A stretch of DNA of 64,000 bases from Nitrospirota bacterium (GCA_963721805.1 CAVRJY010000001.1:640001-704000), one strand, 5' to 3'. Counted from the first letter of the stretch, positions 1,180 to 59,148 are shown. The notes: generated by a model not told the origin, from the sequence alone. Numbers and translations: made by a program.

Positions 1180-1367
1180 AAAGCGCTCCAAATCGCTTGA
1201 TACTGCGTTGGGCATCAAAGACTCGCCCTCTATGTACGTCTCAGTACACCATCGGGCGGTCTTCTTGCCCTGCCTTGTCTGAAGACGATTTGGGCGCGCT
1301 TTCGGGGGGTGCCACGGGCACCTCTCCTAAAAACCGCCCAGCCGCTGCACCCCCGCTCCCCCGTGGA
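1180..1367 (+). repeat. 123-bp hairpin element copy 1 (core 1180-1302) plus G/C tail
   Basis: AAAGCGCTCCAAATCG...CGATTTGGGCGCGCTTT imperfect terminal inverted repeat; nested stems GGGCA/TGCCC, AAGAC/GTCTT, CGCCC/GGGCG, TGTAC/GTACA. Confidence 0.95.
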
Positions 1368-1456
1368 TTTCAAATGTTATTGAGACAAAGGCATAAGCAA
1401 TATGAGAGGATATAATACGTCAAATATATTATGCCTTCTTAGGTATTCTGTTAGGG

Positions 1457-2044
1457 GTGGAAATGATTAACCTTGAAAACACAAAGCATGCTGTTATCAG
1501 TATCATCGGGCAACATGCTAGCGAATCCATGAATGATATTTTTCTGCGCAAGATAACCGATATAAACACTGTCGGTTTGAGTTACTGGCTTATTAAATCG
1601 CATCAGGCAAAACCTATCATGGTTCAGAGCATTTGCAATATGGCTAAAAGCATATTTCAGCCATGTCCTTGTTTTTTCATTGAAGCAGCAACTAAACAAG
1701 GCGCTGTCCCAACAAAGCATTCTGTTTTTGCATATGAATATTCAAAAGATTCGTTGCATTGGGAGCCATTTCCTAAAGGGTTAAGCCCTGTTACGGGAAA
1801 AATTGATACTACTTCTTATGCCCTAGTGTTCAATCAATTAGAGCTTGTTGACATGACGATTGACTTGTGGAATTATACTGACTTTCGCGATAAAGACAAC
1901 CCAATAAGGATCTATCAGGGGGCTTCAACCTTGTGCGCGGTTAAGCAAGATTTGAATAACCCTTTAGGAAAAATAAAATCACGGTACAGAAAAGTGGTAG
2001 CCGTAGGCATATTAGCCGATCCGTATTGTGTCTATCTTAAATGA
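1457..2044 (+). CDS. AT-rich hypothetical protein (cargo between repeat copies 1 and 2)
   Basis: 195-aa ORF, visibly much lower GC than flanks; no family recognised. Confidence 0.75.
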   Translation: MEMINLENTKHAVISIIGQHASESMNDIFLRKITDINTVGLSYWLIKSHQAKPIMVQSICNMAKSIFQPCPCFFIEAATKQGAVPTKHSVFAYEYSKDSLHWEPFPKGLSPVTGKIDTTSYALVFNQLELVDMTIDLWNYTDFRDKDNPIRIYQGASTLCAVKQDLNNPLGKIKSRYRKVVAVGILADPYCVYLK

Positions 2045-2106
2045 AACTATCGGGCTAACCAACATCCCGACCACACCCGCCATGTATAAGTTCCGATCAA
2101 ATCTAT

Positions 2107-2276
2107 TCCACGGGGGAGCGGGGGTCCAGCGGCTGTGCCGCGTCTAACCCCCGAAAGCGCGCCCAAATCGTCTTCAGACAAGGCAGGGCGAGAAGACCGC
2201 CCGATGGTGTACTTGGACGTACATAGAGGGCGAGTCTTTGAAGCCCAACGACGTATCAAGCGATTTGGCGCGCTTT
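2107..2276 (-). repeat. 123-bp hairpin element copy 2 (core 2154-2276), inverted relative to copy 1
   Basis: Reverse complement matches copy 1, including tail CAGCCGCTG.ACCCCCGCTCCCCCGTGGA. Confidence 0.95.
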
Positions 2277-2309
2277 AAAGAAGGTGACGTGAGCGGGTAA
2301 AGCTTCCGC

Positions 2310-2747: not shown

Positions 2748-2898
2748 ATTCTAATTATAAAGCTATGCCCACGGTTTCATCAAGTGGGGAGCGGTTCCGC
2801 CTTCATATTTTATGCATATTTTGCACCCCCTCCTTTCTCTGTCAGCGCGGTTTCACATTTGATTTTAGGGTTTAAGCTTGGGTATCATTAAATTTCCC

Positions 2899-9199: not shown

Positions 9200-9313
9200 G
9201 TAACAGCCAGTCGACTGCTTATTTAAAGCGCTCCAAATCGCTTGATACTGCGTTGGGCTGCGAAGACGCGCCCTCTATGTACGTCTCAGTACACCATCGG
9301 GCGGTCTTCTCGC

Positions 9314-10408
9314 AGTGGATTGTCAAGCCAAGTGCAACAGGCGCGCATTTGCCGCAACCTCGGCGGGTGCCCTGTAGTCCAGCGTTTTTCTTGGTCTGTT
9401 GTTAATCTCATCAACGACGCGATCCAGCTGCTCCTGCGTTACTGTGTTGAAGTCGATCCCCTTCGGAAAGTACTGCCGCAGCAGCCCGTTGAGGTTTTCG
9501 TTCTGGCCGCGCTGCCATGAGCAATAGGGGTCGGCGAAGTATACGTCGATCCCCATCATGTATTTTAAGTCCCTGTAGCATGCAAACTCGCTGCCCCTGT
9601 CCACGGTCATGGTCATACGCATGCCCTGCCGCAGGCCTCCCAGCGCCGATACGGCGGCCTCCCTCAACGCCTCCGAGCCGGGCCTCGGCATCTTCCTCGA
9701 TATAAGGTAGAGGCTCTTGCGCTCGTTAAACGTTGCGATGCACGTTTTCCCGTCGAACCCGTAGACGGTATCCGCCTCCCAATCCCCGAAGCGTCCCTTC
9801 CGGACCACGATCTCGGGGCGCTGCCTGATGCTCAACGCCCCATTGAACCGGCCCCTGGTCTCAGGCCCCCGGGCTTTTCTGTAGCTCCTTCCCTTACGCC
9901 TCAGCATGCGATGCATCGAGCCCCCCATCGCCCTGTCCTGCCGTATCCATCTGTATAGCGTGGCAAAGGATATCCGCATCTCTGTGCTATGTGGATGGTC
10001 AAGCTTAAGGCGGCCCGACACCTGCTCCGGCGACCAACGCCTGCAAAGTCCCGCCATCGCATAGCCGATCAGGCCGTCCGGCCAGCGCTTCAGGCGTCTG
10101 CTCGCAAAATGCCTTCGGCGGACATAGAGCACGGTTGCGGCGTGCGCGCCATAGAAAGACTTCTTCGTGTTGCGCCGCAGCTCCCGGCTCACGCTCGATG
10201 GCGAGCGGCCAAGCTGGCGCCCGATCTCACGTATGCTCACCCCCGCATAACGCATCCTTGCGATGCCCTCCCGCTCATCAATGCTAAAATGACTGTAGCC
10301 CATCGTCCCTCCCTCTCTGTTTCGTCTGGTTGGTACTTGACTCTAACAGAACAGGATGACGATGGGCTTTTTCTTTCACAGGTGTTGCACTTCACATTAC
10401 AATCCGCG
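9314..10408 (-). mobile_element. IS30-family insertion sequence (~1095 bp) with 2-bp GC target duplication
   Basis: Terminal IRs GGATTGT...AAGTGCAACA at both ends; GC at 9312-9313 and 10409-10410. Confidence 0.92.
9323..10303 (-). CDS. IS30-family transposase
   Basis: HTH SSVSRELRRN, WSPEQ, GDWEADTV, DRGSEFA, PYCSWQRGQNEN.NGLLRQYFPKG. Confidence 0.96.
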   Translation of the reverse strand: MGYSHFSIDEREGIARMRYAGVSIREIGRQLGRSPSSVSRELRRNTKKSFYGAHAATVLYVRRRHFASRRLKRWPDGLIGYAMAGLCRRWSPEQVSGRLKLDHPHSTEMRISFATLYRWIRQDRAMGGSMHRMLRRKGRSYRKARGPETRGRFNGALSIRQRPEIVVRKGRFGDWEADTVYGFDGKTCIATFNERKSLYLISRKMPRPGSEALREAAVSALGGLRQGMRMTMTVDRGSEFACYRDLKYMMGIDVYFADPYCSWQRGQNENLNGLLRQYFPKGIDFNTVTQEQLDRVVDEINNRPRKTLDYRAPAEVAANARLLHLA

Positions 10409-10570
10409 GCCCTGCCTTGTCTGAAGCCGATTTGGGCGCGCTTTCGGGGGGCACGGAAGAAGGTCGCCCCCCGCGCCCCCAAGGTCAACGGCATTAATAA
10501 ATAATGAGCGGGGCAGGGGCCCTGCGAATAAGTGAGCGAAGCGAATAGGGAAAGGTGCCCGTGGCACCCC

Positions 10571-14127: not shown

Positions 14128-15567
14128 ATGAGGTGCGCCCTTGTCGTCCCGTCCTGGACGCCCGCCGATATCTTCTCGTCCAAGACCGCCGGATCGCAGA
14201 TCAACTACTGGCAGCCGCTCGGGACGCTCTACGTCGCTTCTAGCCTGCTTCGGGCGGGTCACGAGGTGAGGTTCCTAAACGGTGCCTTCCTCTCTAATGA
14301 CGACGTGCTGGCCCGGATCAAGGAATTCAAACCCTCGCTCATGGGGCTATATAGCACCGCGTTCGGATGGCCCCGCGCTATGCGCACCGCGGCCGCGGTC
14401 AAGGCCGCCCTCGACGATGTCTTTGTAGTTGTCGGGGGGCCTTATCCTGTTGCGCTAAAGTCAGCATGCCTCAGCGACCCCAATGCAGGTGCGATAGACG
14501 CGGTCGCAACCGGCGAGGCCGAGCAGACTATGGCCGAACTCGCCGAGAGGCTAGGGCAGGGCCATGACCTTGCCGGAGTGCTCGGGCTTGCGTACCGCGC
14601 TAAAGACGGCGCTATAGTGGATAACGGCCTCCGGCCGTTCTGCACCGATCTGGATTCGATCCCGTTTCCGGCGCGCGATCTGCTGGGCGATGCGGCCAGA
14701 TACCTGCCGCCCCCGGCGACATACATGCGAAAGCCGGTCGCTGTGATGATAACCTCGCGGGGCTGCAACAGGCGGTGCCTCTATTGCTTCCAGATCGACC
14801 GCGAACGCAGCCACGGGGTCAGGTACAGGAGCATCCCGAACGTTATCGAGGAGATCGAGCTCGTCCTTAAGCAGGGATACCGCGAGATCAAGTTCATAGA
14901 CGATACGCTCGCGGCGGACTACGGCCGGGCGATGGCGCTCGTTCAGGAGATCAAGCGCCGGGGGCTGGACTTCACCTGGTTCGCCTCGGCCTGCGTCAAT
15001 CAGGTCGATGAGCCGCTGTTGAAGGCCTTTAAGGAGGCAGGCTGCTGGGCGATACTCTTCGGGGCCGAAAGCGGTGTCCAGAAAAACCTCAACGCTATCA
15101 GGAAGGGGATCACCACGGAGCAGACGCGGAAGGCAGTGGCAGCGGCGAAGAGGGTAGGGCTTACGGTCCTGACCCCGTTTCTGTTCGGCATACCCGGCGA
15201 GACATACGAAGAGGGGCTCCAGACGATAGAGTTCGCGTGCGAGCTGGATCCGGACATCGCGAACTTCCATGCGATCACCCCGTTTCCGGGGACCGACCTT
15301 TACGACCGGCGGCATGAGCTGGGCACGGTATCGGGGGAGCTGGACGACTACACCTATCAGGGCGCGGCGTTTGTACCGCACACGATGACGAGAGAACAGA
15401 TCGCGGAACTCAGGCAAATAGCGTTCAAACGATTTTATTCACGTCCTTCATATTTGATAAGGCGGGCGTTAAAAGTCAGATCGTTCCATGAAGTTCGAGC
15501 AGCGTTCAGCGGGTTGCGCAGTCTTTTCTGGCTCTGGAGTGAGCGGGGCATATTTAAGAGAAAGTAA
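14128..15567 (+). CDS. B12-binding radical SAM enzyme (class B methyltransferase-like)
   Basis: PLGTLY, VGGPY, TGEAE, SRGCNRRCLYC, GAESG, PFPGT. Confidence 0.93.
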   Translation: MRCALVVPSWTPADIFSSKTAGSQINYWQPLGTLYVASSLLRAGHEVRFLNGAFLSNDDVLARIKEFKPSLMGLYSTAFGWPRAMRTAAAVKAALDDVFVVVGGPYPVALKSACLSDPNAGAIDAVATGEAEQTMAELAERLGQGHDLAGVLGLAYRAKDGAIVDNGLRPFCTDLDSIPFPARDLLGDAARYLPPPATYMRKPVAVMITSRGCNRRCLYCFQIDRERSHGVRYRSIPNVIEEIELVLKQGYREIKFIDDTLAADYGRAMALVQEIKRRGLDFTWFASACVNQVDEPLLKAFKEAGCWAILFGAESGVQKNLNAIRKGITTEQTRKAVAAAKRVGLTVLTPFLFGIPGETYEEGLQTIEFACELDPDIANFHAITPFPGTDLYDRRHELGTVSGELDDYTYQGAAFVPHTMTREQIAELRQIAFKRFYSRPSYLIRRALKVRSFHEVRAAFSGLRSLFWLWSERGIFKRK

Positions 15568-15568
15568 A

Positions 15569-15761
15569 AAAGCGCTCCAAATCGCTTGATACTGCGTTGG
15601 GCATCGAAGACTCGCCCTCTATGTACGTCACAGTACACCATCGGGCGGTCTTCTCGCCCTGCCTTGTCTGAAGACGATTTGGGCGCGCTTTCGGGGGGCA
15701 CGGACAGCGGACGCCCCCCGCGCCCCACAAGGCCAACGTCATGATTGGGAGGGTCAACGGC
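15569..15761 (+). repeat. 123-bp hairpin element copy 4 (core 15569-15691) plus tail
   Basis: Near-identical to copy 1. Confidence 0.95.
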
Positions 15762-15797
15762 ATATTTAAAGTTTTCGCGTGCGCATGGGATACGCTG

Positions 15798-15920
15798 AAA
15801 GTGCGCGAAATTTCGGCAGACAAGGAACGGCGAGGAAAACGTCCGAAGTCGTATATGGACATACGTCGAGGACGGATTTCCGAGCCAGTGACGCAGTATC
15901 CCGGAACTTTCGCGCGCTTT
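15798..15920 (-). repeat. 123-bp hairpin element copy 5, highly divergent, inverted relative to copy 4
   Basis: Same length; GATACTGCGT and CCTTGTCTG kept; stems replaced compensatorily (CGTAT/ATACG, CGTCC/GGACG). Confidence 0.85.
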
Positions 15921-15932
15921 CCCCGTGGCGAG

Positions 15933-15962
15933 TTGACATTACATTGGGGGTTTCATTACTAT
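15933..15962 (+). promoter_or_regulatory. rplM promoter
   Basis: TTGACA-18 nt-TACTAT. Confidence 0.6.
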
Positions 15963-19223: not shown

Positions 19224-19238
19224 TCGGCCCGCTTTCTA

Positions 19239-19469
19239 AAAGCGCTCCAAATCGCTTGATACGTCGTTGGGCATCAAAGACTCGCCCTCTATGTACGTCA
19301 CAGTACACCATCGGGCGGTCTTCTTGCCCTGCCTTGTCTGAAGCCGATTTGGGCGCGCTTTCGGGGGGAGAGGATAACGTAGCCCCCCGCGCCCCACAAG
19401 GTCAACGGCTTTGATTAATAGTAAGCGGCGACTCGTCGCCGCGAATAGGGAAGGGGGCCAGTCGGCCCC
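19239..19469 (+). repeat. 123-bp hairpin element copy 6 (core 19239-19361) plus tail and GGGGCCAGTCGGCCCC end
   Basis: Near-identical to copies 1 and 4. Confidence 0.95.
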
Positions 19470-22175: not shown

Positions 22176-22185
22176 GGTGAGGGTG

Positions 22186-22360
22186 AAAGCGCCCCAAATC
22201 GCTTGATACTGCGTCAGGGCTCGCGGCCTCGTGCTCAACGTATGTACGGATACGCCTCCGCGCGGTCCGTTCGCCCTTCCTTATCTGAAGACGATTTGGT
22301 TGCGCTTTGCGGGGTTGGTCACGGCTCCGCCGCTGGCCCCCGCACCCCGTGGTCAACGGC
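22186..22360 (+). repeat. 123-bp hairpin element copy 7 (core 22186-22308), divergent subtype
   Basis: Same termini and length; inner stems CGTA/TACG, CGTGC/GCGCG; tail GGTCAACGGC. Confidence 0.9.
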
Positions 22361-22435
22361 TTAATTTGATAGCTGCTTTGGTGGGACGTTACATAGGCTA
22401 GATGCGCGAAAGATAAAGAAAGGCGGTATACAGGC

Positions 22436-22670: not shown

Positions 22671-23483
22671 ATGCTAAGTAAGTTTTATAAAGAAATGAAT
22701 ATAGAGATCTCAATTCAGGAAGAACAAAATAGATTTGTACAAAGAATAAACCAGAGCATTTTTGATTATTTCAAAAAGAATCCTTATTATGAAGAGATCT
22801 TTAGGGGCGTATGCTTTGGTTTAGGAATCAATGCTGATGATCAAATCAGCATTGGTATTGAAAGACTAATTTTCCCGCATTTCCGAGAACTAACTAAAGA
22901 CGATTTCATTAGAACACAAGAACTAATTGTTGTAATTCATAATTATTGTCAAAATAAGAATGTGGGAATTACTAATTATATCAATCATACTGTGAATGTT
23001 GCGCTATCTTTATCAACCTGTGATTTGGGTGTTAGGTGGAGTGAGGGCATGTTTTACAGAAGCGGCGATGAGACGCTTGATAGAACTCTTATCGAGGAAT
23101 CACGATCATGGTTAAAAGGCTATCCCGAAGCTAGCCAATCTTTTGATCTCGCTTTAAAACATTACGCCTCTAAACAATACGGTGATGCCATGACAAATTC
23201 ATTTAGCGCTCTTGAAAGCCTTGCGAAAACATATATAGGCAAGGACAGAACTTTAGATAATTTAGCAGAGGAATTAGTAAAGAAGTTACAGTTGAACGGA
23301 GACTTGGGAGCAGTAGTAAAACATTACTGCAAAATAGCACATGGGATGTCATCACGGCATGGAAAACGAGATGCTAATAATGAAAAGATTGAATTACCGG
23401 AGGACTTGGTTGAATTCTACATATACTTCACTGGAACATTTCTGCGCCTTATTGCTCAGAAGATAGCAGTTTCACGGGAATAA
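22671..23483 (+). CDS. AT-rich protein, AbiJ/abortive-infection C-terminal (HEPN-like) candidate
   Basis: Y.DA...S..ALES..K, TL..L, RHG pattern; GAGGTG RBS; low GC. Confidence 0.55.
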   Translation: MLSKFYKEMNIEISIQEEQNRFVQRINQSIFDYFKKNPYYEEIFRGVCFGLGINADDQISIGIERLIFPHFRELTKDDFIRTQELIVVIHNYCQNKNVGITNYINHTVNVALSLSTCDLGVRWSEGMFYRSGDETLDRTLIEESRSWLKGYPEASQSFDLALKHYASKQYGDAMTNSFSALESLAKTYIGKDRTLDNLAEELVKKLQLNGDLGAVVKHYCKIAHGMSSRHGKRDANNEKIELPEDLVEFYIYFTGTFLRLIAQKIAVSRE

Positions 23484-24022: not shown

Positions 24023-24091
24023 TCTACGCCCAGCGGCTTGGGTGTCTTTAGAATAGTGCCCGAAGCGCCCCCTCCCATACCACATCTCCCC

Positions 24092-24147
24092 GGAACTGGT
24101 CAATAGGAACTGGTTCCTAGGAACCAGTTCCCAGGAATCGGTTCCCA
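24092..24147 (+). repeat. Four tandem 14-bp units, each with a GGAACYRGTTCC-like palindrome
   Basis: GGAACTGGTCAATA GGAACTGGTTCCTA GGAACCAGTTCCCA GGAATCGGTTCCCA. Confidence 0.9.
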
Positions 24148-24182
24148 TGGACGCGTTCCGCTTTTCCGTTCTATCATCGCGC

Positions 24183-24566
24183 ATGAAAAAGACAGATGCA
24201 GTAAAGAGAGACATGGCAAGGGCGATGGTGGAGGCGGGACTCTCGTACCGCGAGGTCGCGGACAAGCTCGATATAAGCATCGGGACGGTGCACAACATCG
24301 TCGTGGACAGGGCCGACGACCCGACACCGCTTGCGCGCGGCTTGCGGAGGAAGTTCAGCGCGCGGTGCATGCTGATGGCTGACGAGATGCTTGAGCAGAT
24401 ACGGAGCTACAAGATAACCACCTCCCCGCTCCAGCAGGTGATAGTCTCGATAGCGATACTGCTGGACAAGGCCGCCGCGCTCGAAAAGGAGCAGACGCCG
24501 CATGAGAAACCATCCGATCCAGATGAAAACGTTTCTGAACGCCTAAACACCGGGGACGAGAAATAG
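24183..24566 (+). CDS. Small HTH protein
   Basis: GLSYREVADKLDISIGTVHNI helix-turn-helix; TATCAT 5 nt upstream of ATG. Confidence 0.75.
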   Translation: MKKTDAVKRDMARAMVEAGLSYREVADKLDISIGTVHNIVVDRADDPTPLARGLRRKFSARCMLMADEMLEQIRSYKITTSPLQQVIVSIAILLDKAAALEKEQTPHEKPSDPDENVSERLNTGDEK

Positions 24567-24663
24567 CGATGAAATCCGCGAGGTTGAGATGCGTTTTGTT
24601 TTTTCATTTGAACGCCCTAAAAAAATACGCGCGGCCGCGCGCGATAACTATGTATATAACTAA

Positions 24664-24835
24664 GCCGTTGACCTTGTGGGGCGCGGGGGGCGTCCTTCGT
24701 CCGTGCCCCCCGAAAGCGCGCCCAAATCGTCTTCAGACAAGGCAGGGCGAGAAGACCGCCCGATGGTGTACTGTGACGTACATGGAGGGCGAGTCTTTGA
24801 AGCCCAACGCAGTATCAAGCGATTTGGAGCGCTTT
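24664..24835 (-). repeat. 123-bp hairpin element copy 8 (core 24713-24835), inverted relative to copy 7
   Basis: Reverse complement matches copy 4. Confidence 0.95.
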
Positions 24836-24849
24836 CAAAAAGGCCCCAT

Positions 24850-26393: not shown

Positions 26394-26866
26394 TCAGGGC
26401 AGTATGACGTCAGGCTCGGTAACGGCCGGCTGGCTGATGTCCGGCGGCGTACCCGTGGGCTGGGTGACGGGCGGCTGTGTAACGACAGGCGGGGTGACCG
26501 CGGGCTCGGTGACGACCGGCTGGGTGGGAGTGGGCTCGGTGACGGCCGGCGGGGTGATGGCAGGCTCGGTGACGACCGGCTGGGTGATGGTAGGCTCGGT
26601 CACGACCGGCTGTGTGATCGTAGGCTGGGTAACGACCGGCTGATCGATAGTTGGCTGGTTGATGGTCGGCTGATTGATCGTCGGCTGGTTGATCGTCGGC
26701 TGGACGATGGTCGGCTGGCTGATCGTAGGCTGGTTGATCGTAGGGCGGTTGATCGCCGGCGGCTGATCGACGGGAGGTTGACGGCGAACTGCGTGTCGGC
26801 CGCCGGGTTCGACGCAAAGCAAGGCGTGGATATGCAGCATAGGACTGTGATCGCCATGAGCCTCAT
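26394..26866 (-). CDS. Secreted pentapeptide-repeat (QPTIN/QPVVT/EPAIT) protein; apparent -1 frameshift near 26758
   Basis: AGGAGG RBS and signal peptide MRLMAITVLCCISTPCFA in one frame; >20 five-residue repeats in the next. Confidence 0.7.
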
Positions 26867-29167: not shown

Positions 29168-29197
29168 ATTATACTAATTCTGGTAAGTTTTTGTCAA
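29168..29197 (-). promoter_or_regulatory. Consensus sigma70 promoter for GATase(-glnA)
   Basis: TTGACA-18 nt-TATAAT on minus strand. Confidence 0.75.
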
Positions 29198-29203
29198 GGG
29201 ATG

Positions 29204-29362
29204 AAAGCGCGCGAAATCGCTTGATACCGCGTCACGACTCGCAGCCTCGTCCTCAACGTACGTCACAGTACGCCTCCGGGCGGTCTGCTCGTCGTTCCTT
29301 GTCTGAAGTCGATTTCTCGCGCTTTATGTTTCCCCTGCATGATCGTGCGAGCGGTCAACGGC
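29204..29362 (+). repeat. Hairpin element copy 9 (core 29204-29325, 122 bp), divergent subtype
   Basis: Termini AAAGCGCGCGAAATCG/CGATTTCTCGCGCTTT; inner CGTAC/GTACG. Confidence 0.9.
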
Positions 29363-29722
29363 TTAGTTAGACCCGCGCCCGGTGCCTTAGTTATATACAT
29401 ACTTATCGCGCGCGGCCGCGCGTATTTTTTTTTAGAGCGTTCAAATGAACCGAGAAAAAACAGTCCAACCATGCGGAAAATAAGCGCTTTCTCCGCATCT
29501 CCGTGTTTAGGCGTTCAGAAACGTTTTTCGCGCACTCAAAAGAATTTTGCGCGATATATTGAGTGAGTGGTTTTTCATGCGCCCTAACGATCTCCGGCCT
29601 CGCTAATATAATCTGTCTGTATATCATGCGCGATGATAGAACGGACAGGCGGAACGCGTCAATGGGAACTGGTTCCTGGGAACCAGTTCCTAGGAACCAG
29701 TTCCTAGGAGTCAGTTCCGGGG
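29363..29722 (-). mobile_element. Internally deleted homologue of the 24070-24835 extended element (14-bp array, promoter, no HTH ORF)
   Basis: Shares AAAACGTTTCTGAACGCCTAAACAC, AAAAAATACGCGCGGCCGCGCGCGATAA.TATGTATATAACTAAG and the GGAACYRGTTCC array (29665-29720). Confidence 0.8.
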
Positions 29723-30922: not shown

Positions 30923-31100
30923 TTCCGGGGTGTCGTGGTGGGGGCAACCAGAAGACAAAAATAAGGAATGACCGAAATTGGACAATTGAATAATACCGTT
31001 TTCGCAAATTGCCTCCGCAAAAGAATGGACCTATCACTATTACCCGTCTTGTCATTTTAAATCTATTGTATTTAATGCTAAATAAAGTTACACTTATCGA

Positions 31101-32093
31101 ATGAAATTGGATAGTAAATTAATATACGTTTGGGGATTCATATGGGTGCTAATAGGAACACTGATGCTGTATGTAACTGAAAGCATTTTCTCTACAGACA
31201 AATCAATGGTGGCCGAAAATTTATTCATAAATATTTCAGTAGGTCTAATAGCCTTGGGAATTGTAGCTCTTATCCTTCAGTTGCCAGACTGGAGAAATTA
31301 TTTCCAGGATCGCGTTAAAGAAACGGTTATTGATCGCACGTACCTGAATAGTCTGAGCGAAGAGGAGCTATCTTCTTTGCAAATTTCTACTCTAAAAGCA
31401 AAATACAAGAATACGGATATAGACAGAGAAGGTTCTTTTTTGCAATATTTTCAGAAGCGAATTGAGGATTATATCGGTAAACCTTATAGGGAAAATGTAA
31501 ATACAGCCATGGTAATTAAAGAACATGACAGCAATCCAGATTTTTTTGTAGTGACTGATTCCATCTCATATATTTGCAGAAAACTAGGCAGCAAGATTCA
31601 AGAAGATGTGAGGTGGCTTTATGAACACGGCGAATTTGAGGAAATTATTGATATCGTTGTAATACTTATATGCCCAAATAGTAACCAGAACAACTGCTCT
31701 AATTCTTGTAAAGATAGATGTATAGAAGGGAGGATAACGCTCACAAAAGAGACTTTGGATAAAGATTTCTTTTCAAATACAGAACATGAAAGTGGTTATA
31801 TTGTCAGACTTAAGGAATTACTGCCTGAAAGCGACAAAATTGAAGTTCAAATGTCCACGATTTATAGCATACGAAAAGACAGATTTTTTACATGGGCGAT
31901 GACTCACCCGTCCAAAAACATTAATTTCACTATTATTTATCCCGATGCATATCAAATTCAAACATTTGTGGGCGGTATTGAACCAAAGGAATATTCCAAA
32001 AACATTAAGAGTAATATGTATGTTTTTAACCATCAAGGATGGTTTCTACCAAGAACTGGATTGGCATACTTGTTAAAAAGGAAGTCAGAATAA
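31101..32093 (+). CDS. AT-rich hypothetical protein with two N-terminal TM helices
   Basis: 330 aa, very low GC, two hydrophobic segments then soluble domain. Confidence 0.8.
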   Translation: MKLDSKLIYVWGFIWVLIGTLMLYVTESIFSTDKSMVAENLFINISVGLIALGIVALILQLPDWRNYFQDRVKETVIDRTYLNSLSEEELSSLQISTLKAKYKNTDIDREGSFLQYFQKRIEDYIGKPYRENVNTAMVIKEHDSNPDFFVVTDSISYICRKLGSKIQEDVRWLYEHGEFEEIIDIVVILICPNSNQNNCSNSCKDRCIEGRITLTKETLDKDFFSNTEHESGYIVRLKELLPESDKIEVQMSTIYSIRKDRFFTWAMTHPSKNINFTIIYPDAYQIQTFVGGIEPKEYSKNIKSNMYVFNHQGWFLPRTGLAYLLKRKSE

Positions 32094-32151
32094 TTGAATC
32101 AAAATGGGATGATTCTATAAATCGTGTACGCGCGAGCAACTATTTATATAA

Positions 32152-32328
32152 GCCGTTGACCTTGGGGGCGCGGGGGTCCAGCGGCTGTGCCGCGTCTAAC
32201 CCCCGAAAGCGCGGCCAAATCGTCTTCAGACTAGGAATGACGAGCAGACCGACCGGAGGCGTATATGGACATACGTTGAGGATCGGGCTGCGAGACGTGA
32301 CGCAGTATCAAGCGATTTGGAGCGCTTT
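32152..32328 (-). repeat. 123-bp hairpin element copy 10 (core 32206-32328), inverted relative to copy 9
   Basis: Core resembles copy 9; tail hairpin identical to that of copy 2. Confidence 0.92.
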
Positions 32329-32330
32329 AA

Positions 32331-32897
32331 TTAAACCCTCAGTTTTAATGAATAACCTTTTCTACTTGCGATCTCATCGAGGATCGCATGGAGGATCGAG
32401 GATTTCCTTCGCACCTCGCACCTGTAGGCTTCCACCCTCGCCCTGGTCATCGCCTCGATCAGCTCGTCGACCGAAAGGACCGCGGCCGCGATGCAGTAAT
32501 AAACCTTCGAGCGGCCCTCGTCAAAGCTGCGCAGCATCTCATTGAGCATCTGCTCCTTCGCCTGCTGATCTCTCTCGAATTTCTTGATGCCGATCTCATC
32601 TATTAGGGCCAGGTCGGCTTCGAGCGTCTGGCAGCACCTGAACGTATCATGCTGTTTTGCTTTTTCTCGGTGCTTCTTCCATCTCTCACAGGCCCCGCTC
32701 TCGTCGCAGTCCCAGCAAAACGCGATCCCCTTTTCCTTAACCGCACAGGTTATGAATGGGCATCCTATCGCCACGCGGGACTTGCTCTTGCACCCCTCGC
32801 ACTTTTCTTTCCCTTCGGTATGATACCGGGGACAGAGCCTGCATGAAAAACCGCATATCCCTATCTCGGGGTATTTTATCTCAGTGGCTCTACGCAT
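32331..32897 (-). CDS. DUF3795-like Cys-rich protein
   Basis: CG.SC.LCP, C.GC, C....CA, C.DC....C. Confidence 0.75.
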   Translation of the reverse strand: MRRATEIKYPEIGICGFSCRLCPRYHTEGKEKCEGCKSKSRVAIGCPFITCAVKEKGIAFCWDCDESGACERWKKHREKAKQHDTFRCCQTLEADLALIDEIGIKKFERDQQAKEQMLNEMLRSFDEGRSKVYYCIAAAVLSVDELIEAMTRARVEAYRCEVRRKSSILHAILDEIASRKGYSLKLRV

Positions 32898-32950
32898 CGG
32901 ATATCTTAACAGATAGAAAACCAGTTTACGTACCGCGCATTCAAATCAAA

Positions 32951-33121
32951 GCCGTTGACCTTGGGGGCGCGGGGGGCGCCATTTTTACTTGCCCCCCGAA
33001 AGCGCGCCCAAATCGGCTTCAGACAAGGCAGGACGAGAAGACCGCCCGATGGTGTACTGAGACGTACATAGAGGGCGAGTCTTCGATGCCCAACGACGTA
33101 TCAAGCGATTTGGAGCGCTTT
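32951..33121 (-). repeat. 123-bp hairpin element copy 11 (core 32999-33121)
   Basis: Reverse complement near-identical to copies 1 and 6. Confidence 0.95.
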
Positions 33122-33156
33122 AAAGATAACGCCCGAAATAGTATAATTGCTCCACT

Positions 33157-45232: not shown

Positions 45233-46817
<1,585 letters not shown>

Positions 46818-46954
46818 ATGACTTCGGGTCTTCATGTCCCGACACATCCGGCGAAAACCAAGAAACACCGACTGTGATGCCTACTGCGTAGTTTTAATAG
46901 ATGTCTTATAGGGACGTCTTTTTGTTCTTTGAAAACAGAGGGAAGAAGAATAAG

Positions 46955-50105
<3,151 letters not shown>

Positions 50106-50334
50106 ATTTTTCCACTCCCTCTGTTTTTATGGAACAAAAAGGCATCCATCTCTGACCGGTGCGGGGATGGGGGTTGAAAAAACTCCGTTTTCATGTATGA
50201 TGTAAGGTGTCCCCTGCTTCGGGCCGGATGCCTGAAGGGAAGGCGTGCCGAGGGGAGACGTGCGGCATGCCGGTTTTTGTTTGTGCGCCGGCCACTCCGG
50301 CAGCCCTGATCGCTAGGACGGAAACAACGCGGGC

Positions 50335-53501: not shown

Positions 53502-53567
53502 AGCCGATTATATCAAAGAGTACCTCGGGGCGCCAGCCGGCGATGGCGGGCCGCGAAGGGGCCGCGT

Positions 53568-54662
53568 TTAAAGCAGCCCGAGCCTGATCGCCTTCACCGC
53601 GGCCTCGGTGCGGTTTTGGGTGTTGAGTTTGGCAAACAGGCTCTGGATGTAGGTCTGGACGGTCCTTTCGGCGATGCCGAGCTCGAATGCAATCTCCTTG
53701 TCCTGCAGGCCCTGGGCCAGGCGCCTGATGACCTCGAGCTCGCGCCTGGTGAGGTGCGCCCTCGCATCGCCATCCTTTTTCCTTGAGTCGATCAGGGACA
53801 CCCAGCCGCTGCCCTTCACCGGCAGGTACTGGCCGCCGTGCGTCTCGTCGAACCTGTAGCATATCGCCATCCCGTATGGCGGCGCGTAGGCCTCGATCTC
53901 CTGAAATATAAGGCAGGGTTTGGTGTCGTCATGCCGCGGGACGGTCTTAAGCCGACGGATCTGCTCCATGAGCGGCATCGGGAGCGAGGCCGGCACGCTG
54001 CCGTCGATTCCTTTTATCACCCTCCTGGCGGTCTCGTTGATGAACGTGATCTTACCCTCGTCGTCGGAGGTGATGATCCCGAACGGGAATGCGTCGAAGC
54101 AAGACACCGTGAAGAAGTCCGTGCCGAGCAGCCAGCGATAACGGAGGAAGCTATAAAAGACATAGGGTGAGATCCTGCTAATCGCCAGCATTTCCTGATC
54201 GGATGACCTCGGCGCATCGGCTCTTATCCCGCCGACTATCCCTGTCTGGACCCCTGACTCGCTGCAGAATACGGTTTCGAAGCCGCACAGGAAACCAAAC
54301 GGCTTGTATAACTCATCGTAGTCCACGGGGTAGTTTTTCTCGACGTCGTTGAAGATCTTTGTCGCATACCCGAACTTTTGGGCGGCCGCGACGTGGTCTT
54401 TGTATAAGGGCATGTTCGCGTGGTCTTTATTGACGTATCCGGTCAGAAACTCAGGGGGGAAGCCGCAGAAAATGCCCCTGAAGTCGTATCCCGTGCCCGA
54501 GACCCCCGTGACGCAGATCGGGGTGAATGCGATATCCTGCTTGATCCGCTCGAAGATGGATTCGATGTAGGTCTCGCGGTCCAGAAGGTATATGGAGCGC
54601 TCCTTGATGTCGCGCACCAGCTGCGCGAGCAGGTCTGTCCGGCTGGAGGCCCTGGGTCCCAT
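53568..54662 (-). CDS. LuxR-type regulator paralogue 2 (sensor + PAS-like + HTH)
   Basis: LTRRELEV..LAQGLQDKEIA..LGIAERTV. Confidence 0.9.
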   Translation of the reverse strand: MGPRASSRTDLLAQLVRDIKERSIYLLDRETYIESIFERIKQDIAFTPICVTGVSGTGYDFRGIFCGFPPEFLTGYVNKDHANMPLYKDHVAAAQKFGYATKIFNDVEKNYPVDYDELYKPFGFLCGFETVFCSESGVQTGIVGGIRADAPRSSDQEMLAISRISPYVFYSFLRYRWLLGTDFFTVSCFDAFPFGIITSDDEGKITFINETARRVIKGIDGSVPASLPMPLMEQIRRLKTVPRHDDTKPCLIFQEIEAYAPPYGMAICYRFDETHGGQYLPVKGSGWVSLIDSRKKDGDARAHLTRRELEVIRRLAQGLQDKEIAFELGIAERTVQTYIQSLFAKLNTQNRTEAAVKAIRLGLL

Positions 54663-54676
54663 CGCGCTCTCTTTCT

Positions 54677-55774
54677 TTAAAGCAGCCCGAGCTTGATCGC
54701 CTTCACGGCGGCCTCGGTGCGGTTGTGTGTCTCGAGCTTTGCAAACAGGCTCTGGATGTAGGTCTGGACGGTCTTCTCGGCGATGCCGAGCTCGAAGGCG
54801 ATCTCCTTATCCTGAAGCCCCCGGCCGATGAGGCGGATTACCTCGAGCTCGCGCTGAGAGATCAGGGCCTTCTGGGCCATGTCCTTTTTCCTTGAGTCGA
54901 TGAAAAACACCCAGCCGCTGCCCTTGACCGGCAAGTATCTTCCTCCGAAGTCCTCATCGAACCTGTAGCAGACCGTCACCCCGTACGGCGGGACGTACGC
55001 CTCGATCTCCTGGAATATCAGGCATGGCTCACTATAATGTTTAGGGACCTCATCCAATAGCCGCATCTGCTCCATAAAGCGTGCTGGAAGAACGCTGTGG
55101 GCCTGCCTGCCCGTGCTCCCTATAAGCTGCCTGGCGGCCTCGTTTAGGTATGTGATGTTCCCCGCACGATCCGAGGTGACGATCCCTAACGGGAACTCGT
55201 CATAGCAGACCACTGTGAAGAAGTCCGCCTCTACTAGCCAGCGGTAGCGCTGAAAGGCATAAAATATAAATGGCGCAATCTGGCGCACGGCTGACATTTC
55301 ATCTTCCGCAAAGACAACCTCAGCGCTCTTTAATGCGCCCCAGACACCGATAACATTGCCGGACTGATCGCAGAATACCGTCTCCATGCCGCACTGAAAC
55401 CCGAATGGTTTAAAACGCTCATCATAGTCCTCGGGATAGTTATGGGCCATGTCATCAGAAAACTTTGTCGCGTACCCGAGTTTTTTTGCGGCAGCAATAT
55501 GGTCACGGTAGAAATCCAGTTTTGCATGGTTTTTGTTCAGGTAGATTGCGAGGTACTTCGGGGGATAACCGCACATTATGCCCTTGAGGTCATACCCGGT
55601 GCCGGAGACCCCGGTGACGGTGATCGGGACAAACGCTATGTCCTTCTTGATGCGGTCGAAGATGGATTCGATATATGTCTCACGGTCAAGGAGATAAACG
55701 GCGCGCTCCTTGATATCGGCTACAAGCTTGTTAAGCCCGCTGAGTTTGGCCATATATGGAGTCGAGGAACTCAT
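54677..55774 (-). CDS. LuxR-type regulator paralogue 1
   Basis: Collinear with 53568-54662 over its full length. Confidence 0.9.
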   Translation of the reverse strand: MSSSTPYMAKLSGLNKLVADIKERAVYLLDRETYIESIFDRIKKDIAFVPITVTGVSGTGYDLKGIMCGYPPKYLAIYLNKNHAKLDFYRDHIAAAKKLGYATKFSDDMAHNYPEDYDERFKPFGFQCGMETVFCDQSGNVIGVWGALKSAEVVFAEDEMSAVRQIAPFIFYAFQRYRWLVEADFFTVVCYDEFPLGIVTSDRAGNITYLNEAARQLIGSTGRQAHSVLPARFMEQMRLLDEVPKHYSEPCLIFQEIEAYVPPYGVTVCYRFDEDFGGRYLPVKGSGWVFFIDSRKKDMAQKALISQRELEVIRLIGRGLQDKEIAFELGIAEKTVQTYIQSLFAKLETHNRTEAAVKAIKLGLL

Positions 55775-56573: not shown

Positions 56574-57048
56574 GAATTTATCTTACCTGGCTTACGAGAA
56601 TTAATCAATGATTACAGTATGATATAGTCGGATCCGAAACTCAGCGGCGTGAATTCGCTGCGAGCCCTCAAGCCCATTGCAATTAAACGATTAATTGCGG
56701 GGTTCACGCGCGCATCACCCTTTATAGTATCAAATTCAAGATATCTAATATCCCGTAATGAGAAAATAGTAGGTGAAATTATCTACTCCAAATGCATCGT
56801 TTTAGGGGAATAAATATCAATATTTAAACCGGACAAGTTCTATCCTGAATAGTTTTCCCTGACGCCGCCACCCCAATAATTAGGATTACGCTCAGTAGAA
56901 TTACCGAATTGATTAACCGCACGGATGGGAGTAAAATTATTCGGTTATGTGTAAAAAAATGTTACAAGGGCGTGTAATTGCGTAACCGGCTGAGTTGGAC
57001 AGTATGCAAATGTCATGGCGGCAACAGAGGGGCGGGGAGTTCATCGCG

Positions 57049-57432
57049 ATGAAAAAGGTCCTGATAGTCGAGGACAACAGGCTCCTGTCGATGCTGATAG
57101 AGGAGACGGTCTCCGCGATGGGCTACCACGTCATCGCGAAGATGGACACCCCGCTTGAGGCGCTGCTGCAGATCAAGCGCCTGGAGCCGCACGCGGTGCT
57201 CCTGAACATCTCGCGCACCGGCGGGCATGACGACATCGAGGTGGCTGAGCGGATCCAGGAGGCCTACGGCGTGCCGGTGATATTCATGACCACTCATATG
57301 GATGGCGCTATCAGGCACAGGGCGCTGGAGGTCGCAAGCGGCAGGCTGCTGGACAAGCCGTTGGACGAGCTTGAGCTTCAGCGGCACCTTGAGGGCATAT
57401 GCGGGGTGCCTGACATAAGGCGGACGCCATAG
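57049..57432 (+). CDS. Single-domain response regulator with Asn at the phosphoacceptor position
   Basis: VLIVEDN, VLLNI, PVIFMT, KP. Confidence 0.85.
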   Translation: MKKVLIVEDNRLLSMLIEETVSAMGYHVIAKMDTPLEALLQIKRLEPHAVLLNISRTGGHDDIEVAERIQEAYGVPVIFMTTHMDGAIRHRALEVASGRLLDKPLDELELQRHLEGICGVPDIRRTP

Positions 57433-57469
57433 CGGCCGGGTGCGCATCCGGTCCGGATCACGGAGGACG

Positions 57470-58900
57470 GTGAAGAAGCTAATCAGCATTGACGAACTCA
57501 GGGTCGGGATGTACGTCTGCGGGCTCGGACGCGCATGGATCGAGACGCCGTTTTTCAGCCACAGTTTTCTCGTGTCAGGCCGCGAGACCATAGAGAAGCT
57601 CCGCAGCGCGAAGATCGGGCAGCTGTATATCGACACCGAGCGCGGCATCGACGACCCGCCCGCCCCCGGGCCTTCGGCCGCAGCCCAGCCGGATGACGGG
57701 GAGTTCATGGCCGTAAGCCTCTCGTCGCTCAAGCCCGGCACGGTGCTGCCGTTTGACGTGTTCCGCAACTCAGGCTCGGGCAGGGAGCTCACCATCGAGA
57801 AGGGCTCGGAGTACTCGGCCCCGCTGAGCAAGGCCGTCAAGTTCGGCGGCTCGCTAACGGCCTTCATCAGGAAGGATGACGAGGAGGCCTACCTGCTTTA
57901 CAGCGACTCGCTGCGCCACGGGCCGGGCGGGATTATTTTCTATACCCAGAAGGAGTTCAGCCGCTATAACCGGGACAAGGAGATCCATTATCCTATCTCG
58001 CGCGAGCTGCTCTCGGCCGGGACCAGGGTGGATTTCTCGATACTCGTAAAACGGGGGTTTTTCTACGCCCCGCTCCTGATGGTCGAGCGCGGCTCAGAGG
58101 CTGCGGTCACCGAGCGGGACCTCCAGGCCCACGGTGAGTTCGTCATCGTCCAGGAGGACATCCAGAGGTATCAGGACTATATAGCGCGCCGCCTCCGCCA
58201 AAGCGGCAACGACCAAAAGATGGCCGCGGCCGTCACCCGCGAGACCGCGAAGGTGCGCGTGCGCGAGATCCTCGGCTCGTACCGAGACGGCAGGCTGGTG
58301 AAAAAGTGCGTCGAGGACACGGTGCAGGAAATGCTGGCGCTCATCACGAGCAGCCAGGGCGCCTTCGCCGGACTGCTGAGCCTCAACGCGCAGGACACCT
58401 ATACGTACGTGCATTCGGTCAACGTCGCGGCCCTCTCGATCAGCCTCGGAAACGCGATCGGACTCGGGCAGGGCGAGCTCTTCGAGCTGGGCATGGGCTG
58501 CATCCTGCACGACATCGGCAAGGTCATGGTGCCGGTAGAGATACTGAACAAGCCAAGCCGCCTGACCATACAAGAGTATAAGGAGATAAAAAAGCACGTG
58601 CTGTACGGGCGTGACATCCTAAACGGATACGGCGACATCCCGGAGGGCGCTTACATCCCGGTCTTGCAGCACCACGAAAAGCTCTCAGGCAAGGGCTACC
58701 CGTTCAGGCTCAGCGGCGCGGACCTCCACGACATGGGGAGGATCGCCTCGATGGTCGATACCTATGACGCCATCACGACCAGCAGGCCGTACAGAAAGGC
58801 GCTCTCTGCGTACTACGCCCTCAAGGTCATCTCCAGCGAGAACGAAAACTACGCCCCCGCACTCTATTCCGAATTCGTAAAACTCCTCGGCCGCGCCTAG
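57470..58900 (+). CDS. HD-GYP phosphodiesterase with DUF3391-like N-terminus
   Basis: ELRVGMYV, HSVNV, HDIGK, HHEK..G.GYP, D.YDA....RPY. Confidence 0.92.
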   Translation: MKKLISIDELRVGMYVCGLGRAWIETPFFSHSFLVSGRETIEKLRSAKIGQLYIDTERGIDDPPAPGPSAAAQPDDGEFMAVSLSSLKPGTVLPFDVFRNSGSGRELTIEKGSEYSAPLSKAVKFGGSLTAFIRKDDEEAYLLYSDSLRHGPGGIIFYTQKEFSRYNRDKEIHYPISRELLSAGTRVDFSILVKRGFFYAPLLMVERGSEAAVTERDLQAHGEFVIVQEDIQRYQDYIARRLRQSGNDQKMAAAVTRETAKVRVREILGSYRDGRLVKKCVEDTVQEMLALITSSQGAFAGLLSLNAQDTYTYVHSVNVAALSISLGNAIGLGQGELFELGMGCILHDIGKVMVPVEILNKPSRLTIQEYKEIKKHVLYGRDILNGYGDIPEGAYIPVLQHHEKLSGKGYPFRLSGADLHDMGRIASMVDTYDAITTSRPYRKALSAYYALKVISSENENYAPALYSEFVKLLGRA

Positions 58901-59148
58901 GGGGCCGACTGGCCCCTCTCCCTATTCGCGTCGCTCACTTATTCGCGCAAAGCGCTCATCTCATATCATATCAATGACTTTGACCTCGGGGGGACCGGGG
59001 GGCTTCCGTTGGCCTCCGCGCCCCCGGAGGCGCGCCAAATCGTTTTCAGACTAGGCAGGGCAAGAAGACCGCCCGATGGTGTACTTGGGCGTACATAGAG
59101 GGCGAGTCTTTGAAGCCCAACGACGTATCAAGCGATTTGGAGCGCTTT
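58901..59148 (-). repeat. Hairpin element copy 12 (core ~59027-59148) plus tail and GGGGCCAGTCGGCCCC end
   Basis: Reverse complement matches copy 2/6; abuts CTAG stop. Confidence 0.92.

Follow-up and report, generated by a model that had tools for sequence, protein, structure and literature searches.

Inverted pairs of a hairpin repeat, set with their GGTCAACGGC-box ends facing inward, are associated throughout a 2.78-Mb Nitrospirota genome with low-GC accessory DNA of toxin-antitoxin and defence flavour, and the link is strong. The first-pass annotation of a 64,000-nucleotide stretch of this genome (the window) had listed 12 intergenic copies of the repeat and had read inverted copies and the DNA between them as non-autonomous composite elements. 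Its interpretation is supported in part, as regards the family, its polarity and this link; the composite-element reading is not supported. All 12 copies were recovered, both by repeat finding (the copy positions fall in direct-repeat families D2, D3 and D5 and in inverted pairs I2-I25) and by nhmmer with a profile made from 10 of the window copies. The profile yielded 13 rows in the window, the 12 copies plus a detached 3′ piece of the copy at 9225, and 227 matches in the genome, over 7 of its 9 contigs.

The repeat unit spans about 190 nt and comprises, in order, a T-rich leader, a 123-nt hairpin maintained by compensatory changes, a short GC hairpin and a near-invariant GGTCAACGGC box; it is polar, and from leader to box it is asymmetric. 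The hairpin (AAAGCGC...GCGCTTT) has the length initially described. Its inverted ends, AAAGCGCNCSAAATCG and CGATTTSSNGCGCTTT, are the terminal inverted repeats expected of a MITE, and the single imperfect 123-nt hairpin with its tail is unlike the 20-40-nt palindromes or doublets of REP and REPIN elements. The box, a 10-mer, is specific to the repeat: of 154 genomic occurrences, 142 directly follow a hairpin. Conservation ends some 20 nt beyond the box. When the fold of one copy is mapped onto the alignment, which biases the count toward that structure, 79.5% of cells are paired (35-45% in slid controls) and 20 pairs are altered on both sides (7-12 in slid controls). The RNAalifold consensus on the MAFFT alignment of the copies was poor. 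G-T wobbles in the hairpin outnumber A-C mismatches by 74 to 44, a ratio that does not settle which strand folds. Rfam covariance models found nothing but rRNA at gathering score in the window, nothing between 1100 and 2400 at E values up to 1 and, in the copies of relatives, a sole match to one IRES at chance level. No described repeat family and no Rfam model matches the repeat.

The window holds three strongly AT-rich ORFs that had been described as bracketed by the repeat, and each indeed lies between a plus-strand and a minus-strand copy with tails pointing inward. In slot 1, copy 1 (1172-1369, plus strand, hairpin 1180-1302; 145.0 bits) has its head 16 nt past an lpxL-like stop (1164), and carries the leader and a CCCCCGTGGA-variant tail with no GGTCAACGGC box. 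Copy 2 (2087-2284, minus strand, hairpin 2154-2276; 143.8 bits) has the same variant tail, and its head adjoins a gspG-like stop (2310). The ORF between them (1457-2044, plus strand; 195 aa, GC 0.39) has no Pfam or PADLOC match, and its look-alikes in the protein atlas fall in unnamed clusters only. Slot 2 is capped on the left by copy 7 (22178-22371, plus strand, hairpin 22186-22308, box 22351-22360; 117.3 bits), whose head lies 11 nt past an nrdJ-like stop, and on the right by copy 8 (24653-24843, minus strand, hairpin 24713-24835, box 24664-24673; 144.6 bits). Its cargo ORF (22671-23483, plus strand; 270 aa, GC 0.36) has no Pfam match; in PADLOC it hits PDC-S32, a candidate defence model, with E 9.7e-13. 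Slot 3 lies between copy 9 (29196-29373, plus strand, hairpin 29204-29325, box 29353-29362; 118.6 bits), with its head toward the 5′ end of a GATase-like gene, and copy 10 (32141-32336, minus strand, hairpin 32206-32328, box 32152-32161; 124.1 bits), with its head touching the stop (32331) of a DUF3795 gene. The cargo ORF here (31101-32093, plus strand; 330 aa, GC 0.35) has no Pfam or PADLOC match. This third bracket also encloses an IS481-like insertion sequence (29717-30928, minus strand; transposase 29775-30809 with rve, rve_3 and HTH_32), an element present in 10 near-identical genomic copies.

The remaining copies show the repeat alone, interrupted or paired without cargo. Copy 3 (plus strand) is interrupted within the 3′ arm by an inserted IS30-like element (9314-10407, minus strand, bounds placed by eye; transposase 9323-10303, HTH_38), leaving a 5′ part at 9217-9313 (hairpin from 9225) and a remainder at 10408-10498 (hairpin 10408-10441, GGTCAACGGC box 10478-10487). 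Copies 4 (15561-15761, plus strand, hairpin 15569-15691; 146.2 bits) and 5 (15798-15928, minus strand, hairpin 15798-15920; 53.3 bits) are the left and right halves of an empty pair, with 97 nt separating their model matches. Copy 4 has a GGCCAACGTC box at 15731 and a GGTCAACGGC box at about 15752; copy 5, which belongs to a divergent subtype, lacks a box. Copy 6 (19231-19420, plus strand, hairpin 19239-19361, box 19400-19409; 143.3 bits) is solo, its head 16 nt past the stop at 19223. Copy 11 (32940-33129, minus strand, hairpin 32999-33121, box 32951-32960; 142.5 bits) has its head about 35 nt upstream of the mutS start, and copy 12 (58965-59156, minus strand, hairpin 59026-59148, box 58976-58985; 131.0 bits) is again solo. 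Overall, the oriented tail of G-run/C-run hairpin and GGTCAACGGC reported earlier is found in 8 of the 12 copies, or in 9 if the GGCCAACGTC/GGTCAACGGC sequence at 15731-15761 is included; the copies at 1180 and 2154 have the CCCCCGTGGA variant and that at 15798 is boxless. The window had been said to hold no transposase or integrase matching the repeat. Two transposases, the IS30-like and the IS481-like, are in fact present. Repeat-like ends were seen on neither, those of the IS30-like element reading GGATTGT...AAGTGCAACA.

Genome-wide mapping extended the orientation rule seen in the window. Among 199 near-full copies, neighbours no more than 2500 bp apart form 46 inward (+-), 4 outward (-+), 9 ++ and 10 -- pairs; orientation is thus far from random (46 versus 4, binomial p = 4.5e-10). 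Median GC inside the inward pairs is 0.44, compared with 0.60 for the genome, and their interiors contain toxin-antitoxin, defence-like, orphan and IS genes. Interiors of the other arrangements have median GC of 0.635 (-+), 0.60 (++) and 0.59 (--) and hold mostly host-like genes. Of 437 low-GC windows, 127 fall inside pairs, that is, in 3.1% of the genome. The same polarity is evident at single copies (n=187): GC measured 100-600 nt past the hairpin end is 0.62, with 1% of copies below 0.50, versus 0.50 past the box end, with 49% of copies below 0.50.

The hairpin end lies at a median of 26 nt from a host-like gene, and within 100 nt in 161 of 188 copies (119 at gene 3′ ends, 42 at 5′ ends); on the box side the median distance is 499 nt. 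Where gaps of at least 400 nt between host-like genes are taken as slots, all 121 repeats at slot edges turn the hairpin toward the host gene and none is reversed. The chance that an edge is capped climbs with gap size from 0.12 to 0.56, and in gaps of 1.5-6 kb about one edge in two bears a cap, counts by gap class being approximate because host genes were called with a home-made codon-usage caller. Double-capped gaps number 26, against 21.0 expected were the two edges independent. Of 120 other genomes from the order, 15 carry a related hairpin repeat. It is box-less there and lacks GC polarity, head GC exceeding tail GC in 23 of 50 cases in other genera; polarity therefore goes with the box-bearing derivative rather than with the hairpin itself.

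The explanation that best accommodates these findings, to which we would give slightly less than an even chance, is that a structured REP/MITE-like repeat, polar and non-coding, has expanded to about 200 copies specifically in this lineage, each copy serving as an independent cap. Every cap would set its hairpin end against the end of a host gene and turn its GGTCAACGGC-box end toward the variable DNA of the intergenic space; an inverted pair with cargo would then be a slot with both edges capped, not a transposon. Much as REP/BIME sequences do, the hairpin end may have a function for the gene beside it, as a 3′-UTR hairpin, a terminator or an insulator. If so, insertions between gene and hairpin would not be tolerated, and the box side would be free to receive DNA and perhaps prone to recombination. 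Borders between a host gene and foreign DNA might also be where caps are preferentially acquired or retained. The 42 heads at gene starts, where a 3′-UTR role is inapplicable, run counter to this account. An active role in acquisition would also fit the strong low-GC enrichment and the capping of half of the 1.5-6 kb edges; on these data, gene capture at the box end is a possibility.

Such a role defines the principal alternative, in our view possible but doubtful, namely that the GGTCAACGGC-box end is the working site of an undescribed one-ended system of DNA acquisition or exchange, with about 200 portable docking points placed beside host genes. Foreign DNA would be joined or exchanged at the box end, which would act as a recombination site or homology anchor; on this reading the caps would be the cause of the slots. 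The genes concerned would be toxin-antitoxin, defence and orphan genes, moved by an unlinked recombinase or nuclease encoded elsewhere, or by homologous or homology-facilitated illegitimate recombination anchored on the many repeats after DNA uptake. This alternative draws on the strict polarity (121:0) and its absence from the box-less relatives, on the near-invariance of the box and the abrupt end of conservation behind it, and on the 4- to 9-fold enrichment of accessory DNA on the box side, where three IS families and iteron-bearing non-coding modules also gather. It is also consistent with six empty pairs whose box ends lie only 62-139 nt apart, one of them forming a palindrome, GGTCAACGGCAT..N..GCAGTTGACC. 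However, the drop to low GC does not coincide with the box end (values of 0.52-0.53 persist at +20 to +60), the junctions carry a half-site only, and uncapped slots exist, 8 of 33 gaps of 1.5-3 kb having no cap. Counts of slots with both, one or no edge capped are fitted about as well by independent capping of existing slots. Finally, none of the genome's recombinases (7 tyrosine, 1 serine) is linked to the repeats by genome position.

That the repeats serve a tyrosine recombinase as its recombination sites, comparable to pdif/Xer or integron attC sites, is improbable. Integron attC sites are likewise structured hairpins of similar size. In dif modules of Acinetobacter, small sets of accessory genes, for resistance, toxin-antitoxin and other functions, lie between copies of one repeated site in inverse orientation (PMC13141974). 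IS1202-family elements are reported to target pdif. Both the inversely oriented flanks (46 inward versus 4 outward within 2.5 kb) and the targeting by IS elements have their parallel here. Yet pdif is a 28-bp two-arm Xer site on plasmids, whereas the repeat is a 190-nt chromosomal unit with a single 10-nt box and independently capped edges. A two-arm (11-6-11) site is missing at the box: an inverted arm occurs within 130 nt in 8 of 189 boxes, and within 40 nt in 3. The best match to the integron integrase model TIGR02249 scores 68.8 bits against a cut-off of 265, and attC-like arrays are absent, the copies being dispersed over the chromosome and the cassettes lying between inverted rather than direct sites.

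Comparison of recent copies identified what spreads. Among 434 copy pairs at least 93% identical, 295 share only positions -9 to 129 and 106 extend to 160-190; overall, the shared segment runs from -9 to about 185 and never includes cargo, showing that the repeat multiplies, or is homogenised, as a ~190-nt unit without its neighbours. Direct repeats of at least 7 nt around pairs did not exceed the control, and when, for single copies, the 45 nt preceding the head were compared with the 260 nt following the hairpin, the longest direct matches resembled the inverted control in their distribution, reaching 10 nt or more in just 2 of 188 cases. Among 48 pair interiors there is not one with a second copy that includes its flanks; 7 have a non-IS match of at least 250 nt, 6 of these to tail-side non-coding modules and one to a possible paralogue. 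Partner subtypes are random (16 alpha/beta pairs, 15.5 expected). Bacterial MITEs and mobile insertion cassettes are small, non-coding, multi-copy elements with terminal inverted repeats, pairs of which can flank passenger genes devoid of a transposase. The repeat resembles them in its long inverted ends around such genes and in hairpin termini that are themselves inverted repeats. It differs in its strict orientation relative to host genes, and no cognate IS was seen among the IS30-like, IS481-like and IS200-like elements. The lack of flanking duplications and of joint copying of pair and cargo, together with the random partners and the nearly independent edges, makes the composite elements of the first-pass annotation, mobilised by a transposase encoded elsewhere, highly unlikely.

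Neither a RAYT nor an integron integrase was found in the genome, and no IS with matching ends was seen among the three IS families considered. The six PF01797 matches have equal scores and correspond to 100% identical copies of one IS200-like gene (143 aa, within a 600-nt element) and not to a RAYT. The ends of the IS30-like element differ from the repeat, and copies of the IS481-like and IS200-like elements lie at variable distances from the hairpins.

Among known systems, REP/BIME and REPIN-RAYT sequences come close: as described in the literature (PMC3116915, PMC2817692), they are high-copy intergenic hairpins, often at gene ends, that form mosaics with other short motifs, are specific targets of IS insertion and keep their fold by compensatory change. 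The present repeat differs in its hairpin size, in its polar tail with an invariant box and in having no RAYT. REP, BIME and REPIN elements are not known to point one end at foreign DNA. The minimal mobile elements of Neisseria are small accessory cassettes that occupy fixed intergenic slots without mobility genes, homologous recombination after DNA uptake being their proposed vehicle. They are defined by conserved flanking genes and strain comparison, the slots described here by a repeated flanking element in one genome. Small accessory islets without a mobility gene are common in bacteria and how they arrive is an old question, for which the present genome is an unusually clear example: a single repeat family marks about half of the edges of its 1.5-6 kb accessory slots, and no edge copy departs from the orientation rule. 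Should the repeat take part in acquisition, it would be a new kind of gene-capture site and, as a set of docking points, a dispersed chromosomal counterpart of integrons and dif modules; should it insulate host genes from foreign DNA, it would reveal a new role for REP-like repeats. In both cases the repeat gives a practical means of locating the accessory and defence-like genes of this lineage.

The iteron-bearing non-coding modules on the tail side of the repeats include ATCCGAACA and GGAACYRGTTCC modules. In slot 2 such a module contains an array of 14-nt GGAACYRGTTCC palindromes (24091-24174; repeat family D6), and a second array of this family (29636-29733) adjoins the IS481-like element. 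An ORF running from an iteron module through tail and hairpin was judged not to be coding, since the reading frame across the conserved iterons varies from copy to copy. An outward promoter using the TTGACC of the box was likewise discarded, as no -10 element was recognised downstream by eye.

Outside this genome, exact scans of genome contigs and of metagenome contigs for the 24-nt head motif gave 0 matches each, and BLAST of a full copy against 40 relatives returned only one 26-nt, chance-level match. An extended-box pattern, too strict as it turned out, found 12 sites in the home genome and one elsewhere among 400 genomes of the phylum. Searches for related loci with MutS and NrdJ gave best identities of 61% and 66%, indicating no close relative, and contigs from two DNA runs containing small shares of the sequence words were short and of low depth, none bridging a cargo slot. 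A sister lineage of about 87% identity was seen in one sequencing run. The comparison of alleles proposed for lpxL-gspG was informative as to insertion, though not as to the order in which repeats and cargo arrived. Four relatives of the same family (about 50% LpxL identity) retain the two convergent genes, 65-735 nt apart, and show nothing repeat-like in this spacer by eye or by fold. The spacer comparison thus shows that the whole repeat-cargo unit at this locus is an insertion in the present genome.

The window corresponds to positions 640001-704000 of contig C1 in the home genome (G000), which spans 2.78 Mb in 9 contigs with a GC content of about 0.60; the MutS protein of the window is nearest to proteins of MAGs labelled Nitrospira/Nitrospirota (61% and 53-54% identity). 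Repeat detection in the window recovered all 12 copies listed by the first-pass annotation at their coordinates, as well as the hairpin length of 123 nt it had proposed (AAAGCGC...GCGCTTT), and alignment of these copies revealed one shared architecture. An nhmmer profile made from 10 window copies (129 positions: the hairpin plus 6 nt of tail) yielded 227 genome matches at E values up to 1e-3, of which 199 (104 plus-strand and 95 minus-strand matches) span 100 or more model positions. In position logos of 145 copies, the 6-8 nt immediately preceding the hairpin head form a T-rich leader (TTYTTS) that is conserved in part, with no information upstream from it. The hairpin is followed by a variable GC hairpin or AT-rich linker of 21-43 nt and, in 153 of 188 strong copies, by the box GGTCAACGGC, past which conservation continues as WT.R.TT.RA to end about 20 nt from the box start. 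Of the 154 genome occurrences of the 12-mer GGTCAA[CA][GA]GC[AT]T, 142 directly follow a hairpin and share its orientation; most of the other 12 are recognizable as remnants of tails. In 27 divergent copies, the hairpin nearly always folds as a single, long, imperfect stem. In the hairpin alignment, 79.5% of the cells are paired, versus 35-45% after a shift of the partner by 1-3 columns, and changes on both sides are found in 20 of 45 pairs versus 7-12 in the shifted controls; none of 500 shuffles attained the observed values, the count being biased in favor of the structure used, which came from one member. No Rfam family matches the repeat. Its anatomy thus defines a self-contained, structured, polar unit of approximately 190 nt.

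This polarity is reflected in the surrounding DNA. Neighboring near-full copies no more than 2.5 kb apart form 46 pairs with boxes facing inward, 4 with boxes outward and 19 in tandem (46 versus 4, binomial p 4.5e-10). Median GC in the inward interiors is 0.44, so that the association of inward pairs with low-GC DNA, initially noted in the window, holds genome-wide. Within 5 kb there are 54 inward pairs; 48 have an interior longer than 300 nt, with a GC content below 0.52 in 41, and six are empty (140 nt or less between model matches). Interiors of the other three orientations have a GC content of 0.59-0.635 and contain mostly host-like genes. The same asymmetry is seen with single copies: at 100-600 nt, GC is 0.62 past the hairpin end versus 0.50 past the box end, and falls below 0.50 in 1% of copies on the hairpin side and 49% on the box side. 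Pair interiors make up 3.1% of the genome but hold 127 of the 437 low-GC windows (<0.45), and 185 of the 437 lie within 2 kb of a box end, in zones covering 10.8% of the genome.

We called 2583 host-like genes on the basis of codon usage, with a caller of our own trained on long ORFs. The median distance from the hairpin end to such a gene is 26 nt, and 161 of 188 copies have one within 100 nt (119 at gene 3′ ends, 42 at 5′ ends); on the box side the median distance is 499 nt. We then considered gaps of at least 400 nt between host-like genes, with IS genes set aside. Twenty-six gaps are capped by a repeat at both edges, 69 at one and 157 at none; edge independence within size classes predicts 21.0 double-capped gaps. 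The share of capped edges climbs from 0.12 in gaps of 400-800 nt to 0.56 in those of 1.5-3 kb, and all 121 edge repeats have the hairpin towards the host gene. Other thresholds gave the same picture. Hence, the repeat sits hairpin-first against host genes, capping slot edges independently.

Pfam analysis of 117 ORFs of at least 80 aa from pair interiors identified toxin-antitoxin components (MazE, PemK, ParE, Phd/YefM, Gp49 with HTH_3, NTP_transf_2 with HepT, DUF4160/DUF2442), defence-like proteins (Abi_C, KAP NTPase, a HEPN, DUF5677, PLD and HNH nucleases, an N6_N4 methylase fused to Mrr), GNATs, SRAP, phage-tail-like proteins and three kinds of transposase; many ORFs have no Pfam match. PADLOC (E up to 1e-5) gave matches in 10 of the 57 larger non-IS interior ORFs, including window ORF 22671-23483 (candidate model PDC-S32). 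The other two cargo ORFs of the window, 1457-2044 and 31101-32093, have no Pfam or PADLOC match, and their atlas look-alikes are unnamed clusters of other phyla, a lead only.

Mobile elements and non-coding iteron modules of 300-400 nt also gather on the box side. Among them are a 1.2 kb IS481-like element, whose 10 near-identical copies are all located about 700 nt or less from a hairpin, and six copies of an IS200-like element. The first type of module (about 18 copies; e.g., G000 C1:1011400-1011725 and C5:49987-50312) comprises five ATCCGAACA iterons, an extended -10-like TGTATAGT and an intrinsic-terminator-like GC hairpin with an A/T run; it has a sharp cargo-side boundary and always lies between the cargo and one box end. 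An ORF traverses it, but the frame of the iterons differs between copies. The second type consists of arrays of the 14-nt palindrome GGAACYRGTTCC (window 24091-24174 and 29636-29733), which contains CTAG, the preferred target of IS481. The IS481-like copy of the window (29717-30928) adjoins the latter array; the former has no IS and overlaps a 139-aa HTH ORF (24147-24566). About half of the filled pairs carry an iteron module, always at one end only. Finally, five of the seven genome copies of an IS30-like element (326-aa transposase) cut the 3′ arm of the hairpin at the identical position (window 9314-10407; G000 C1:387-388 kb, C1:759-760 kb, C2:367-368 kb and C2:397-398 kb), indicating that this element targets the repeat specifically.

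When 120 other genomes of the order were searched with a covariance model of the hairpin, 15 gave full-length matches. These 15 are distributed among four families (3/10, 4/12, 1/11 and 7/11), and the number of matches per genome reaches at least 27. In these relatives, a longer outer stem, CTCAAAATTGCTTC...GAAATCAATTTTGAG, takes the place of the T-rich leader and box tail. Three weak matches in the home genome (C1:175872, C2:542635 and C4:94196) have relative-type flanks (AAGAGGCTGAAATCG...AATCAATTTTGAGAYAGGTTC) and resemble leftovers of the ancestral type in a genome with about 200 copies of the derived type. GC is higher on the head side in 23 of the 50 relatives' copies with both sides measurable (mean difference 0.005), and a second copy is present at only three loci in the 6 kb around each copy. 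A strict pattern for the extended box, which matches only 12 sites in the home genome, had no match in the 400 other genomes of the phylum searched apart from one by chance. Thus, cargo polarity belongs to the box-bearing derivative of the home lineage. As a separate observation, at the lpxL-gspG site the family relative L144 (G004) has some 735 nt of low-GC DNA without such a repeat, so that insertions at this site are not confined to the home genus.

We tentatively favor, at somewhat short of even confidence, a model in which the hairpin end is functionally coupled to the adjacent host gene, as a REP-like 3′ hairpin, terminator or insulator. With the hairpin end tied to the gene, only the box side could accumulate DNA, and caps would arise or persist at the junction of a gene with foreign DNA. 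The main rival, which we consider doubtful though a serious contender, holds that the box end is itself recombinogenic and the cause of the slots. In its favor are the near-invariance of the box, the pairs that face each other box to box with nothing inside, the accumulation of ISs and iteron modules on the box side and the lack of polarity in relatives that have no box. However, junctions show half-sites only, the drop in GC comes about 40 nt past the end of the conserved stretch around the box, some 60 nt from where the box starts, rather than at that end, and many slots have no cap.

An Xer- or integron-like reading is highly improbable, having failed its defining tests. The genome has seven tyrosine recombinase matches (one a 294-aa Xer-like ORF 2.2 kb before the window), one serine recombinase and six IS200-like Y1 genes; no integron integrase was found in it, and among the recombinases examined none adjoins a repeat in a way that singles out one gene.

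Least probable is the composite-transposon reading, in which a pair and its cargo form one element as the first-pass annotation had proposed: it failed its defining tests of duplications, shared stretches, partners and edges. The outer flanks of a pair share direct repeats no longer than those of the inverted control (8 nt reached by 1 of 54 in each), and only 2 of 188 single units have a flanking repeat of 10 nt or more, one being window copy 15569 (11 nt, including part of the box). Duplications of such length are therefore rare. Among 92 high-scoring copies, 434 copy pairs are at least 93% identical; the common stretch starts at -9 to 0, and its end falls at the hairpin for 295 pairs and inside the tail for 106, with a single pair extending past 300 nt. 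The repeat spreads, or is homogenized, without its neighbors and without target duplication. Seven of 48 pair interiors have a non-IS match elsewhere in the genome (≥250 nt, ≥88%), six to iteron modules and one to a possible paralogue; none of the 48 has cargo duplicated together with its caps. Tail subtypes of partners are random (16 mixed pairs versus 15.5 expected, p 0.51). Together with the edge independence and uniform orientation of edge repeats, these results identify the single cap, not the pair, as the unit of biology.

The closest kinds of element, in the sources as partially consulted, are REP/BIME/REPIN, MITEs and mobile insertion cassettes, Acinetobacter dif modules and Neisseria minimal mobile elements, yet each differs somewhere in its membership tests. 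Among the matches listed by full-text searches on Nitrospirota repeats, cassette-flanking palindromes and MIC/MITE passengers, the portions consulted describe no such repeat. Compared with these portions, it is a structured repeat of REP/MITE-like kind whose polarity towards accessory DNA has neither exception nor precedent.

A freshwater-sediment sequencing run (X2) contains contigs about 87% identical to the window, with a summed depth of 82-177 over repeats versus 10-50 nearby. One contig, weak evidence at a depth of about 4 and a likeness threshold of 85, has 29 other letters in place of window 15558-15949, an empty pair. This suggests that a sister lineage has the repeat family but lacks it at this site. 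Another contig (depth 3, likeness 85%) joins window 29164 to 24856, the outer edges of two neighboring slots, through 14 other letters. This would fit a circular permutation, or another order, of the intervening 4.3-kb host segment in the relative; at this depth and likeness, the join may be an artefact.

Elsewhere in the window, at 26398-26763, a region with gene calls on the minus strand, 19 head-to-tail copies of a GGCTGGGTGACGACC-like unit of 15 nt probably represent a 5-residue protein repeat. Segments recurring every 1106-1109 nt at 53567-55658 (families D4, D8 and D9; 69-87% identity) probably represent a tandem pair of paralogous genes. An rRNA operon occupies 45233-50106 (16S, 45233-46810; 23S, 46955-50106).
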